A stretch of 61,832 nt of DNA. Source: Actinomycetota bacterium. GTDB taxonomy: Bacteria > Actinomycetota > Actinomycetes > S36-B12. Below are positions 4,409 through 6,859 of the stretch, one piece after another (positions within the stretch are counted from its first letter, which is position 1; every line of letters starts with the position of its first letter). A model generated the notes under the pieces. It searched no databases, was not told the DNA's origin, and worked only from the letters and a program-made list of their open reading frames with translations. Position numbers and translations under genes: made by a program. The stretch spans positions 1 to 61,832 of the forward strand of contig WLOY01000004.1 in the NCBI GenBank assembly GCA_009699015.1, in the 5' to 3' direction.

Positions 4409-4561
4409 GGGGGAATGCTACGGGGGCTGCGATGGAGCGGCGGGTGCGTCCCAAAGGGTCACCGAGACCTCCTGCGAACTTCGCCGGTCGCCGTCGGCGT
4501 CGGCCTGTACGCTGACGGAGTGAGCGACTCGATCCATGAGGAAGAGCGTGTGCTGCTGCCG

Positions 4562-6859
4562 ATGCTCAACGCGGAGCAGGATCACCAGGTCGACGATCAA
4601 GAGGGTGGCGACCCGGACGGCCAGTTCCAGCGCGAAAGTGCCGCCAATGGGGTTCAGGCGCCGGGTCAGGCGCGAGATCGGCCACCGCTCATCGCCGAAG
4701 CGGGTGCGGATGCGAATGCGAATGCCGAGGATGGTGAAGCACCGGGCGGCGTCGACCAAGAGCCCCCGATCCAACGTCCGGAAGGCTTCCGTCCGGACGT
4801 CACCGACAACCCAGAGGGCCTGCGCGACGTCACGAAGAAGATGGGAAAGTGGGATCGCCTTGCCGAGGTCGGCCAGACGCTACAGGGCCAGGGCAATGCG
4901 GCTCGCATGCGCGGTGATCACCGGTACGGCGCCGCGGCAGCCCACGGCGTTGGAAGATTCGCGCTCTCGGTCGGGACAGGAGCGAGCGCCATTGCGGGTG
5001 CCCCCGCGGCGATGACTGCCGTTGGCCTGGGATCCGCTTTCGCTGCACCGGTACTCATGGGCGCAAAGGCAGCTATCGGAAATACCTTGCAGGTGGCCGG
5101 GCAGACGGCTGACTTCATCGCCGACAATCGCCGCGAGGCGCTCGATCCAAAAGGGGAGGCACGCCAGCAGGTGCTTACGGACCTCGCCAATCGCCACGAC
5201 TTCGGGCAGGACTCCAGTCAGGAACTGACGGAGGATGAAGCCGCCGCCAAGACCCGCGTGGCCGAAGTCGATGCGAAGGGCGTTCGGTTCGAGAAGAACG
5301 ATCAGGCGAAACGCGTGTTCGAAGGGCGCAAGCGGCGCACCGGTGGGCGTCTTGCCGAGAATGCCGCGATGTCCGTAATCAAGTCTCCCTGGACCGTGCT
5401 CAAGGGGCTCGGCAAGTCCATTGGGGGCCTCGGGAAGAAAATCTGGACGGGAACGTCCAGTTGGTGGCACGGAAAGGGCAAATGGCACAACCGTAAAGGT
5501 GCGCGCCGGGCACGAGGCCAGGCGGAGATCGAGCGGCTCACCGCGGCAAAGGAGGCACAGGCGAACAACAATGTGCCGGGGGGCATAGAGGCAGGTGAGG
5601 CTGCGGCACCTGCCGCACCCAAGCCCTGGGGCATGTGGGGCGCGGAGCACGGTATCCGCCACGGCGTGCGGGCTGAGCGCGCGGCTGCAGGACAGGGTGG
5701 CGGCATCGGTTTGAAGGACTCCAAGATACTTAGCATTGGTGACCGGCAGAGGTTCAAAGCGCTCGAAAGGGACGTCGTCCAAGGGACCGACAAGTTCAAG
5801 AGTGTCGAGAACAAGGCAATCGAAGAGGGATACAAGTCCATCATCGCCAGTGGCCAAGCAGCGATGGACCTTGATCGTCCCATGCCAATCGGCAACATTA
5901 AGGACCACTTCGCCCCGAATCAGGAGTCAGCAGTTCCGGGGGCACTTGAAGGGCTGAGCGCCGTGGGCAAGTATGGCAACGACGGGCTGAAGGCCATGAA
6001 GTCGGCCCTGCCGGCGGCGAGCATGGTCGGGACTGCGATCGGCGGAGCCGGGGGGCAGGGTGTCGCGGACGTCGCGAACGCGGCCCTCGGCGGCATAAAG
6101 TCAGCTAACGCGGTTACGACGATCCCCGAACTGCCACTACTCCCGATCGCCTTTGAGGGCCTGAAGACCGCCGCAGATGTTGGGCAGACGGCTTTTCAGG
6201 CGGCCCATCGCGACGACGACCCCTTGGCCAATGCTTCGCGTGAGCGGCAGGGCCTGACTGACATGAGGCAGATGTTGGCGGCGCAGAGGGCGATGCGCCG
6301 GGCCGAGCGCGGGGAAGGGGGCGACGCCCCGCAGGGAGTTGCTGCGGATCGGACGCCACGTAGTGGGCGCCTCTTCCGCGCTGCGGGACGAATGGTTCTG
6401 GCGAACCAAAAGCTCGTCAAGGCCCAGGCGAAGACTGGCATTACCTCCCTGAACGAGTACACCGGTCAGCAGTCGAATTTCATCGCAAGTGGCCAGATGT
6501 CTGCTGAGGGTCCGCTTGTCGGGTCGCGCCTCGCGGGTCTCGGCTCGAGCCTCGCGAGACGCTTCGGTGGCCGTCGGGCGGCCCCCGCGGACCTGCAGGA
6601 TCTGAATGCTGAGAATGAGCAACTCCCTCCGCCGCAGGGGGCGGAGGTCGAGCAGGATGTTCAGGACCAGCAGCAGGAAGGAGTGGGTGGCGAGAGTGAG
6701 CCGGACCAGAAGCCCGATGAACGACAGATCCCCGCGGCGTTGTTCGACGTCGAGAAGCCTCAGCCGATCGCAGGGATTTCCGACGGGGATGCCAACCTGA
6801 CCGATGCGGACCTCCAGATGGCACGAGCAATGAAAATGAATGGGCGCTCCGAGGAATGA
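4562..6859 (+). CDS. Orphan ~765-aa protein: acidic disordered N-terminus plus Gly/Ala-rich hydrophobic (glycine-zipper-like) segments; candidate CIS cargo/effector or internal protein
   Basis: The ORF is open from 4415; the first ATG is at 4562 (GTG at 4521 is also possible) and the start is uncertain. It contains GAAAAHGVGRFALSVGTGASAIAGAPAAMTAVGLGSAFAAPVLMG and MVGTAIGGAGGQGVADVANAALGG. It uses noticeably more A/T-ending codons than the neighbouring genes. I recognise no family. Confidence 0.6.
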   Translation: MLNAEQDHQVDDQEGGDPDGQFQRESAANGVQAPGQARDRPPLIAEAGADANANAEDGEAPGGVDQEPPIQRPEGFRPDVTDNPEGLRDVTKKMGKWDRLAEVGQTLQGQGNAARMRGDHRYGAAAAHGVGRFALSVGTGASAIAGAPAAMTAVGLGSAFAAPVLMGAKAAIGNTLQVAGQTADFIADNRREALDPKGEARQQVLTDLANRHDFGQDSSQELTEDEAAAKTRVAEVDAKGVRFEKNDQAKRVFEGRKRRTGGRLAENAAMSVIKSPWTVLKGLGKSIGGLGKKIWTGTSSWWHGKGKWHNRKGARRARGQAEIERLTAAKEAQANNNVPGGIEAGEAAAPAAPKPWGMWGAEHGIRHGVRAERAAAGQGGGIGLKDSKILSIGDRQRFKALERDVVQGTDKFKSVENKAIEEGYKSIIASGQAAMDLDRPMPIGNIKDHFAPNQESAVPGALEGLSAVGKYGNDGLKAMKSALPAASMVGTAIGGAGGQGVADVANAALGGIKSANAVTTIPELPLLPIAFEGLKTAADVGQTAFQAAHRDDDPLANASRERQGLTDMRQMLAAQRAMRRAERGEGGDAPQGVAADRTPRSGRLFRAAGRMVLANQKLVKAQAKTGITSLNEYTGQQSNFIASGQMSAEGPLVGSRLAGLGSSLARRFGGRRAAPADLQDLNAENEQLPPPQGAEVEQDVQDQQQEGVGGESEPDQKPDERQIPAALFDVEKPQPIAGISDGDANLTDADLQMARAMKMNGRSEE

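Follow-up and report, generated by a model that had tools for sequence, protein, structure and literature searches.

A gene in the CIS locus of the contig WLOY01000004.1 (Actinomycetota, S36-B12), transcribed divergently from a Pvc15/Afp15-like ATPase gene, may encode a new family of CIS cargo that would be loaded through its N-terminal region. From its sequence and that of its relatives we give this reading an even chance, and the protein would then be a lineage-restricted accessory component of the system. The gene, called here the orphan, lies in a window of 61,832 nucleotides (positions 1 to 61,832 of the contig), which is the whole stretch of DNA that was analysed. The original prediction had presented it as a candidate CIS effector with membrane-active glycine zippers. 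"Candidate CIS effector" is a fair reading of the gene, resting on genomic context, namely its position on the ATPase side and the restriction of its family to CIS loci, whereas the glycine-zipper mechanism did not survive the analysis. Effectors define what a CIS does, and most of them are still unannotated.

The CIS locus in the window is complete, with genes for cap, ATPase, PAAR-like, sheath, tube, eCIS_core and baseplate proteins (Table 1). The ATPase start at 4408 is backed by the conserved residues W18, L22, L25 and R28, the sheath is nearest to copies on Streptomyces/Kitasatospora plasmids (51-54% identical), and the DUF4280 protein scored 3.3e-18 with the IglG-like NF041248, under the cut-off of that profile. 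The orphan ends 1 kb short of the sheath gene, and the DUF4280 gene is the only one between them; neither a convincing ORF in the 513-bp gap downstream of the orphan nor an adjacent immunity-like gene was found. The sole eCIS_core gene of the locus is located 3.6 kb downstream of the orphan. Its product, a DUF4157 protein, fills the phage tape-measure slot (a Tme-like position), after the tube gene and a small gene and before the tube initiator, the slot being assigned by position in comparison with Streptomyces/Kitasatospora loci and PMC11126660. Besides the orphan, this protein is thus a second candidate of the locus for a lumenal or cargo role.

Table 1. Features of the orphan gene and of the CIS locus around it (positions in the window).
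Feature	Position	Strand	Evidence and remarks
Pvc16/Afp16-like cap protein	1682..2377	+	PF14065 (Pvc16_N) 1.8e-27
Pvc15/Afp15-like AAA+ ATPase, N-terminal winged-helix domain, 632 aa	2510..4408	-	PF00004 1.9e-24, PF22977 5.4e-11; divergent from orphan
Divergent intergenic region, ATPase start to orphan start	4409..4519	.	111 bp
Orphan CDS, most likely form	4520..6859	+	GTG start, 779 aa; ORF and N-terminal motif conservation
Acidic disordered N-terminal region, aa 1-97	4520..4810	+	Net charge -17; candidate loading or recognition region
Family-specific short linear motif I-H-E-E-E-R, aa 5-10	4532..4549	+	Pattern hydrophobic-x-E-[ED]-E-[KREQ]
All-helical core, aa 98-682 (predicted)	4811..6565	+	Family alignment A2; AlphaFold secondary structure, low confidence, mean pLDDT 37
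Gly/Ala-rich uncharged block 1, aa 152-181	4973..5062	+	Borderline hydrophobic, no strict GxxxG
Cationic Lys/Arg/Trp/Gly-rich segment, aa 270-329	5327..5506	+	Net +14 per 60 aa
Substitution hot-spot, aa 421-465	5780..5914	+	7/13 amino-acid differences from L003
Gly-rich block 2, aa 504-525	6029..6094	+	Holds GxxxGxxxG; KD below 1.0; lineage-specific insertion
Acidic Gln-rich unstructured C-terminal tail, aa 683-779	6566..6859	+	Net charge -14, 12% Gln
DUF4280 PAAR-like spike-tip protein	7373..7849	-	PF14107 3.5e-28; convergent with orphan, divergent from sheath gene
Sheath gene	7894..9417	+	Pfam match
Tube gene	9466..9909	+	Pfam match
eCIS_core/DUF4157 protein, 776 aa	10489..12819	+	PF13699 3.6e-20
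Baseplate module: tube-initiator-like gene, VgrG, gp25, Baseplate_J, 2 genes without Pfam matches	12823..20820	+	Pfam

The ORF listing of the window contains an uninterrupted + strand ORF at 4415-6859, divergent from the ATPase gene as originally described, with three candidate starts: ATG 4415 (the maximal ORF, 814 aa), GTG 4520 (779 aa) and ATG 4562 (765 aa). The last of these had been adopted in the prediction, with 153 bp between the two gene starts. GTG 4520 is most likely the true start, because the S-I-H-E-E-E-R sequence upstream of M50 is a protein-level motif that opens all distant homologues; it also recurs internally in them (family alignment, motif scan). The two database members that come from the window's own contig or a near-identical one are likewise 779 aa long. 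This start leaves 111 bp between the orphan and the ATG of the ATPase at 4408, an interval where presumably both promoters sit. No sigma-70 consensus site or Rfam element was found in this interval, and Rfam and promoter/terminator scans of 4100-7950 gave nothing above chance; the hexamer TACGCT (4509-4514) precedes the GTG by 5 nt, which would be compatible with leaderless transcription. The upstream DNA is strongly conserved between the window and loci L001 and L002, but it was rejected as a regulatory element, the whole flank being 94-95% identical.

The orphan status of the protein was confirmed by searches in very large collections, which returned three homologues in 5.8 billion clusters and, by profile search, about 12 clusters in 1.84 billion representative proteins, none of the 12 annotated. 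Among 185,579 species genomes, two distant relatives only were retrieved, both in MAGs. All sources of the family are environmental assemblies and MAGs, and no member was detected in phage and plasmid collections (tblastn) or in a viral-contig scan. The nearest homologues, P0002 and P0003, are 60% identical to the window protein, and distant ones at 27-32% identity, from lower-GC (about 57%) contigs of other samples, retain motif islands, charge architecture and locus position. Lengths in the family range from 779 to 1432 aa, the surplus consisting of disordered acidic regions, and differ through indels even among close strains (779, 818 and 834 aa).

Homologues with readable context were restricted to CIS loci. 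In all six loci with readable flanks (L001, L002, L003, L004, L008 and L009) the gene lies beside the AAA ATPase or the fibre genes of a CIS locus, and on the short contig L006 the same fibre-like gene upstream was the only readable neighbour; in all close relatives the gene is paired divergently with the ATPase gene. On the other hand, none of the 80 closest ATPase metagenomic loci recovered (ATPase up to 61% identity) carries a family member, so that the orphan gene looks accessory, not core, to the CIS locus. In the nearest long locus without the family (L015), ORF size and order indicate the sheath gene followed by DUF4280-Pvc16-ATPase with nothing between. An IS5-like transposase lies directly downstream of the L001 copy. 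A partner gene downstream of the distant copies was considered as an immunity candidate and rejected, being common to L004 and L007 only and having no equivalent in the window; the gene downstream of the L008 copy is lipoprotein-like and unrelated to it.

The absence of a recognised family also stood up, as searches of the window protein against Pfam (E up to 0.01), NCBIfam, PHROGs and PDB sequences matched no family, searches with the family alignment gave nothing usable, and Pfam found no match in nine relatives or fragments. A PHROGs "endolysin" match (E 0.0027) was discarded because it was weak, not replicated and confined to the Gly/Ala-rich region of one relative. No recognisable toxin or enzyme domain, and no DUF4157, was found in the window protein with Pfam, NCBIfam and PDB sequences, and none of the relatives showed a recognisable toxin or enzyme domain either. 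AlphaFold2 runs with 4 and 14 sequences (mean pLDDT 31 and 37) were uninformative and yielded no confident tertiary fold. A DUF4157 domain or an adjacent small DUF4157 partner marks many known eCIS effectors, and the orphan has neither.

An acidic N-terminal tail, a cationic centre and an acidic, variable C-terminus are kept in 9 of 9 members examined. The predicted acidic, disordered N-terminus is indeed present: about 97 residues, 71% of them P/G/D/E/Q/A/N, show no structure in the AlphaFold model. The motif at its beginning opens the distant homologues and is repeated 2-4 times in P0008, P0009, P0010 and P0015, against 0.04-0.08 occurrences expected, the repeats sitting in disordered regions of several distant, larger members. 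In the scanned loci its matches are almost confined to the family, the window's other two being at 24242 and 39798. The core of the family is predicted to be all-helical and basic, in agreement with the helical regions described originally, and contains short conserved stretches, namely N-x-A-R-x-R-G-[ED]-[GH]-R-Y-G-A-A, R-F-E-x-x-D-x-A-K, G-R-x-A-x-N, H-R-x-D-D-P and L-N-E-Y-x-x-x-x-x-F-I (alignment A2). Within it, the cationic segment keeps its character and position across the family; its amphipathic moment does not stand out. The acidic, Gln-rich tail was also correctly described; its position is the site of variable extensions of 100-750 aa that differ between members, and its DNA could not be aligned with that of L001 or L002.

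The two Gly/Ala-rich blocks on which the glycine-zipper proposal was built are both present, but their postulated properties are not. GxxxG is not enriched in the whole protein, with a count of 13 compared to 12.2 +/- 3.1 in shuffled sequences, and strict GxxxG spacing is missing from block 1. The maximum of the 19-residue Kyte-Doolittle profile (KD19), found in block 1, is a borderline 1.53, and both blocks lack conservation across the family: the counterpart of block 1 in distant homologues is Gly/Ala-rich but with E, K and D, and block 2 is missing from P0002 and P0003. The window clade has a stretch of 36 uncharged residues, where KD19 is 1.53-1.65; in P0009, P0010 and P0015 KD19 is 0.83-0.99. 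An amphipathic-helix scan was not exceptional either (maximum hydrophobic moment 0.62; shuffle maximum 0.59 +/- 0.06). An internal duplication, suggested by the fact that both Gly-rich blocks are followed by a similar "GQTA...DP...RQxLTD" stretch, was rejected, with an hhalign probability of 0.4% between the N- and C-terminal halves.

The orphan is the fastest-evolving gene of the locus. Compared to L002, its dN is 0.20 and its omega 0.87, whereas the ATPase shows a dN of 0.005 and an omega of 0.12, and Pvc16 an omega of 0.21; omega along the orphan goes from about 2.7 at aa 1-60 to about 0.3 in the core (aa 121-294). With respect to the 99.3%-identical contig L003, 13 amino-acid changes were counted in the orphan and 0-2 in each of the ATPase, Pvc16, DUF4280, sheath and tube proteins. 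Relaxed constraint is a possible cause of the high omega values in the window clade. In the independent pair L004/L006, omega is 0.31 overall and 0.13-0.2 in the core, and the protein is thus under selection and not junk; the orphan is a real gene. A deviating codon usage, put forward earlier as a hint of separate ancestry, exists but is small: GC3 is 0.727, the lowest of the locus and below the 0.80-0.86 of the ATPase, sheath, tube and VgrG genes, yet about equal to that of the eCIS_core gene (0.732) and near that of two baseplate-region genes (0.75-0.76). Separate ancestry itself was not supported: this GC3 falls within the range of the locus, and the 5' 1 kb of the gene is 94% identical to L002, like its flanks.

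The cargo reading can be put as a sequence of steps. The orphan would be co-regulated with the Pvc15-like ATPase from the divergent promoter region, and its acidic, disordered N-terminus with the hydrophobic-x-EEE-K/R motif would be recognised for loading or tethering, a recognition that, by analogy with PVC, would involve the ATPase. The long, basic, all-helical core would be carried extended in or at the tube, in the manner of tape-measure-related effectors, and the cargo packed into the particle would be expelled on contraction. The variable C-terminal region would be where relatives bear extra modules, which would make the window protein a "core-only" version, and the best conserved candidate for target contact (membrane or nucleic-acid binding) would be the Lys/Arg/Trp-rich cationic segment rather than a glycine zipper. 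A bolder form of the proposal, that the motif is a sequence-defined loading or tethering signal and the family a modular carrier independent of the tape measure, with a basic helical core that fills the tube and a C-terminus open to different modules, seems to us decidedly improbable.

Being all-helical, Gly/Ala-rich, of low complexity and without a confident fold, the orphan might instead be a structural lumenal protein, a lineage-specific tape-measure-like ruler, plug or tube filler with no payload activity of its own. It adjoins an Afp15-like ATPase, as afp14 does in pADAP, its length varies by indels between close strains, and its 779 aa nearly equal the 776 aa of the DUF4157 protein of the locus. 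Helical structure, poor conservation and a place beside an Afp15-type ATPase are also traits of the Afp14/Pvc14 tape measures. The tape-measure-like alternative was already mentioned in the original prediction and is now weakened, and we regard a purely structural protein as unlikely, because the tape-measure slot is already taken by the DUF4157 protein and the closest ATPase loci were recovered without the family, which is unexpected for an essential ruler. Moreover, the orphan does not match CIS_TMP (PF19268), which Afp14 of pADAP matches at 1.9e-49, or any PHROGs tape-measure family at E up to 1; hhalign probabilities were below 1% with the Streptomyces tape-measure-slot protein, a 1065-aa hypothetical protein of L013, the window DUF4157 protein and Afp14 (0.04% for alignment A2). 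The wide length range of the family, with its excess in disordered acidic regions, also speaks against a ruler. Lumenal protein and cargo are overlapping concepts here, since Tme and Sle1, though effectors, are also related to tape measures.

A protein paired divergently with the ATPase in all close relatives, with long disordered regions and recurring short motifs as hub or adaptor proteins typically have, could also be a factor that is not injected, such as an assembly chaperone or adaptor for the ATPase, a regulator or, in the window clade with its uncharged stretch, a membrane-associated tether like CisA, whose cytoplasmic N-terminal region is also largely unstructured (PMC12237407). This we hold to be quite unlikely: chaperones and adaptors are usually well conserved, in contrast to the rapid evolution of the orphan, and the hydrophobic stretch is not conserved in the family. 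[quoted passage not shown] Finally, high-GC genomes hold long ORFs open by chance, and many long spurious ORFs on other frames overlap the orphan in the ORF listing; together with an omega of about 0.9 against L002 (reaching or exceeding 1 in some segments), a GC3 lower than elsewhere in the locus and the IS5-like element beside the L001 copy, this would be consistent with a hitch-hiking or decaying gene without a CIS role. Such an interpretation is very unlikely given that homologues at 27-32% identity keep motif islands, charge pattern and locus position in contigs of about 57% GC, and that the omega of the core is 0.13-0.4 in two independent pairs.

Returning to the cargo reading, if the orphan is packaged it would stand for an effector or cargo class without DUF4157, without a known toxin fold and with a defined acidic N-terminal motif. 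PVC cargo requires an N-terminal signal of about 50 aa plus Pvc15 (Jiang et al. 2022, PMC9054023). The orphan resembles PVC/Afp payloads in being encoded at the ATPase/cap end and in the very hydrophilic, disorder-prone character of its first 35 residues (KD -1.23), and to this extent the resemblance to PVC signals claimed in the prediction held. However, the eCIS signal descriptors published by Danov et al. (2024, PMC11297309) call for a slightly positive charge and an aromatic or heavy residue, whereas in the orphan the charge over aa 6-21 is -4 (between -3 and -7 in all family members) and no F, W or Y occurs in aa 1-8; nor does a toxin domain follow the N-terminus as in PVC/Afp payloads. 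PVC signals have almost no conserved residues, in contrast to the defined, repeated EEE-containing motif of the orphan family. If this motif were a loading signal, it would differ from PVC/Afp signal peptides, in which no conserved residues can be defined, and would be easier to use than the sequence-less PVC signal in cargo prediction and in the loading of foreign proteins. Given how rare the family is, it is of limited general importance as long as the motif is not shown to work as a portable signal.

Like the orphan, the S. davawensis effector Tme (Nagakubo et al. 2024, PMC11126660) is a large, extensively disordered protein with hydrophobic stretches and a cationic, cell-penetrating-peptide-like segment, and its gene belongs to a CIS locus whose lineage occurs in several phyla. 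Nevertheless, Tme has DUF4157 and an EndA-like nuclease domain and occupies the tape-measure slot, so that its counterpart in the window is the protein at 10489-12819 (no nuclease match) and not the orphan. Sle1 of S. lividans (SLIV_17115; Nagakubo et al. 2026, PMC13277306) is also helix-rich and has no DUF4157 of its own, and its family, as that of the orphan, combines a conserved N-terminal/central part with dissimilar C-terminal regions and, in some members, a hydrophobic helical stretch. No sequence relationship between the two was detectable, as the profile search of 1.84 billion representatives recovered the 12 family members only. In addition, Sle1 begins with a 440-aa coiled coil instead of about 100 aa of acidic disorder, remotely resembles phage tape measures, for which the orphan gave no PHROGs match, and lies in reverse tandem with its adjacent small DUF4157 partner Sle2, whereas the orphan is divergent from an AAA ATPase and has this and DUF4280 as neighbours.

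The ATPase-to-sheath interval of the Streptomyces loci examined holds RICIN, DUF4157 or hydrolase-type genes. No HMM similarity was found between the orphan and the genes that fill this slot in the examined Streptomyces/Kitasatospora loci, and the family HMM matched none of the ORFs of four such CIS loci even at E up to 10. In S. coelicolor, Sco4256-4258 are toxic, and particles have an empty lumen when these proteins are deleted (Casu et al. 2023, PMC10066040). All three share an N-terminus and contain a single clear transmembrane domain, and two of them also a RICIN domain; by Pfam the orphan has none of these. As the orphan, they are accessory, possess a hydrophobic segment, occur in CIS-positive strains only and lie between the Cis15 ATPase and the sheath gene, and with Sco4256-4258 and Sle1/Sle2 the ATPase-side slot has been experimentally shown to be an effector slot in related Streptomyces systems (PMC10066040, PMC13277306).

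The window carries a complete contractile-injection-system (CIS) locus, and the + strand open reading frame originally predicted beside its loading-type ATPase is real. The start of this orphan gene had been set at ATG 4562, 153 bp from the divergent ATPase gene; the divergent arrangement stands, but GTG 4520 is the favoured start. Its product of 779 aa equals in length two database members that come from the window's own 61,832-bp contig or from one nearly identical to it. A peptide encoded 5' of ATG 4562 (S-I-H-E-E-E-R-x4-P-M) aligns with the extreme N-termini of 27-32%-identical homologues, and because its S-I-H-E-E-E-R motif is found again inside distant homologues, we read it as translated sequence and not as a ribosome-binding site. 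The ATPase start at ATG 4408 has support from N-terminal residues that four distant ATPases conserve, so the divergent gap becomes 111 bp. Metagenome gene calls in the loci with close orphan relatives (L001-L003) give ATPases of 587 or 603 aa versus a 632-aa form; as W18, L22, L25 and R28 of the latter are kept in distant ATPases, the shorter calls are probably 5'-truncated.

Features of the CIS locus and its surroundings
Feature	Positions	Strand	Remark
Pvc16_N cap	1682-2377	+	
AAA+WHD ATPase	2510-4408	-	
Orphan, maximal ORF	4415-6859	+	
DUF4280 PAAR-like gene	7373-7849	-	
Sheath	7894-9417		
Tube	9466-9909		
125-aa gene			between tube and eCIS_core/DUF4157 gene
eCIS_core/DUF4157 protein	10489-12819		776 aa
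Tube-initiator-like gene, VgrG, gp25, Baseplate_J			3' of DUF4157 gene
635-aa protein	20844-22751	-	weak FN3 match; far end of CIS operon
Type IV pilus assembly genes	36819-43467		PilM-like, PilB-type T2SSE ATPase, PilC-type T2SSF; ~15 kb past CIS locus
NERD-UvrD helicase	54489-56999		
Copper amine oxidase and aldehyde dehydrogenase genes	57443-60965		

The orphan and DUF4280 genes converge on a 513-bp gap (6860-7372) that contains neither a convincing ORF nor a match to Rfam; one weak terminator-like hairpin lies at 7028-7042, the number of such sites being not above chance. The 635-aa protein is a possible fibre-like candidate; its similarity to the FN3-rich gene (1232-1256 aa) that adjoins the ATPase in distant loci is marginal at best. 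The pilus, helicase, oxidase and dehydrogenase genes are ordinary chromosomal context.

Searches of Pfam, NCBIfam, PHROGs and PDB sequences returned no match for the orphan, as expected of a protein described as belonging to no recognisable family. Three relatives were found by a word-indexed search of 5.8 billion clusters, 12 by searching 1.84 billion representatives exhaustively with a profile, and two, both in MAGs, by a scan of 185,579 species genomes, with no family members in phage, plasmid or viral-contig collections. Close relatives (98% and ~60% identity; L001-L003) are placed as in the window, reading divergently from the ATPase gene, and distant ones (941-1432 aa; L004, L008, L009) are divergent from an operon of the ATPase and an FN3-rich fibre-like gene, so that the anticipated confinement of homologues to CIS loci held in these six loci; on L006, a short contig, the fibre-like gene alone is visible beside the homologue. 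Because no family member occurs in the 80 metagenomic loci with the closest ATPase relatives recovered (<=61% identical), among them L015, where ORF size and order indicate sheath / DUF4280-Pvc16-ATPase with nothing inserted, the orphan gene is accessory to this CIS lineage and not core.

The L004 contig (CAMAVT010000011.1) carries an OmpA-family gene together with a complete CIS module and is assigned to a 'Bifidobacterium breve' MAG, a label that may reflect binning. A 346-351-aa gene convergent to distant orphan homologues (L004 13950-15005 and L007 3595-4635; 61% identical to each other) has no Pfam match, and its 'NHHP...GECxVSYG' stretch presumably recalls SET-domain motifs; L008 has an unrelated lipoprotein-like gene in its place.

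No structure is predicted for the N-terminal 97 residues of the orphan, which carry a net charge of -17; residues 98-682 are all-helical by prediction, and residues 683-779 are acidic and Gln-rich, in agreement with the acidic, unstructured N-terminus and acidic, Gln-rich tail of the original prediction. The likening of this N-terminus to PVC packing signals was right as to disorder, but its charge and aromatic content depart from published eCIS signal descriptors. AlphaFold models were uninformative (pLDDT 31 and 37 in two runs), and therefore nothing is inferred from fold. The proposed glycine-zipper membrane-active segments were not supported by GxxxG count, hydropathy or conservation. Block 1 (aa 152-181), the first of the two Gly/Ala-rich segments, lacks strict GxxxG, and the whole protein has 13 such spacings versus 12.2 expected from composition. 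The best 19-residue hydropathy is a borderline 1.53, with block 2 below 1.0; block 2 is an insertion absent from the nearest homologues, and in distant members the Gly/Ala-rich segments that align with block 1 include E, K and D, the hydropathy maxima of these members dropping to 0.83-0.99.

The family carries the N-terminal motif hydrophobic-x-E-[ED]-E-[KREQ], nearly confined to it within the scanned loci and present in 2-4 copies in the distant larger homologues P0008, P0009, P0010 and P0015 versus 0.04-0.08 expected. Islands of the helical core are kept (NxARxRGEGRYGAA, RFExxDxAK, GRxAxN, HRxDDP, LNEY...F), as is a charge plan running from the acidic N-tail through a Lys/Arg/aromatic segment (~aa 270-335; +13 to +15 per 60 residues) to acidic C-terminal regions. 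The C-terminal extension differs in length and content between members; short motif islands are common to the four long members, whose extensions contain no Pfam domain.

Compared with L002, the orphan gave dS 0.23, dN 0.20 and omega 0.87 (~0.3 in the core, aa 121-294, and >=1 in several segments), versus dS 0.039, dN 0.005 and omega 0.12 for the ATPase and omega 0.21 for Pvc16. From L003, a contig 99.3% identical, the orphan differs at 13 amino-acid positions, compared with 0-2 for each of the ATPase, cap, PAAR-like, sheath and tube proteins. Seven of the 13 fall in aa 421-465 (window 5780-5914), several requiring two nucleotide changes; this cluster marks either a hot-spot where diversifying change is concentrated or a small patch of recombination. 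For L004/L006, an independent pair, omega was 0.31 for the homologue (0.13-0.2 in the core) and 0.17 for the neighbouring fibre-like gene. From these three comparisons, in which pairwise values over such short segments are noisy, the orphan protein is under selection yet consistently the least constrained gene. Codon usage had been taken to hint at separate ancestry; such an origin is not indicated, because the orphan GC3 (0.727), although the lowest of the locus, essentially equals that of the DUF4157 gene (0.732), with two baseplate-region genes close, and over its first kilobase the gene shares 94% identity with L002, as its flanks do.

Support for the orphan as a candidate CIS effector, as originally predicted, comes from the locus context, without the membrane mechanism then attached to it. 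We hold with moderate confidence that it represents a new, rare family of CIS cargo, a candidate for loading via the acidic, motif-bearing N-terminus. For a protein with a helical core, a lumenal, tape-measure-like structural role may also be considered; we regard it as unlikely, no similarity being detected to the tape-measure-slot proteins examined or to Afp14/CIS_TMP. In this locus that slot is taken by the DUF4157 protein, matching in position Tme of S. davawensis (PMC11126660). An 81-bp tandem repeat in its gene (11517-11788; 3.4 copies, 94% matches) encodes Pro/Ser/Ala-rich 27-aa units, and since L003 is 162 bp shorter there (722 versus 776 aa), near-identical strains differ in the length of this protein by entire repeat units.

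Encoded beside the ATPase, the orphan might instead be a non-injected adaptor or chaperone, which is less likely still. That the gene is decaying, or unrelated to the injection system, is improbable given its conserved core and its recurrence in CIS loci, although in L001 a transposase N-terminus (5026-5484), which we take to be IS5-family-like, lies directly 3' of the homologue, with no counterpart in the window, where DUF4280 and sheath genes occupy that place. That strain may have an interrupted CIS locus, and relaxed constraint may contribute part of the near-neutral omega of the window clade.

Among known systems, Streptomyces/Kitasatospora loci have sheaths 51-54% identical to that of the window, and their ATPase-sheath interval is either empty or occupied by genes of RICIN, DUF4157, hydrolase or regulator type; no sequence similarity of the orphan to the slot genes examined was detected. 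In S. coelicolor this slot contains Sco4256-4258, toxic in E. coli and whose deletion yields empty particles (PMC10066040), and in S. lividans Sle1/Sle2, of which Sle1 is a helical cargo related to tape measures that is packaged and has C-termini that vary (PMC13277306). PVC cargo requires an N-terminal signal and Pvc15 (PMC9054023). Unlike Sle1, the orphan has no Sle2-type partner; in position and general build it resembles Sco4256-4258, Sle1/Sle2 and PVC cargo.
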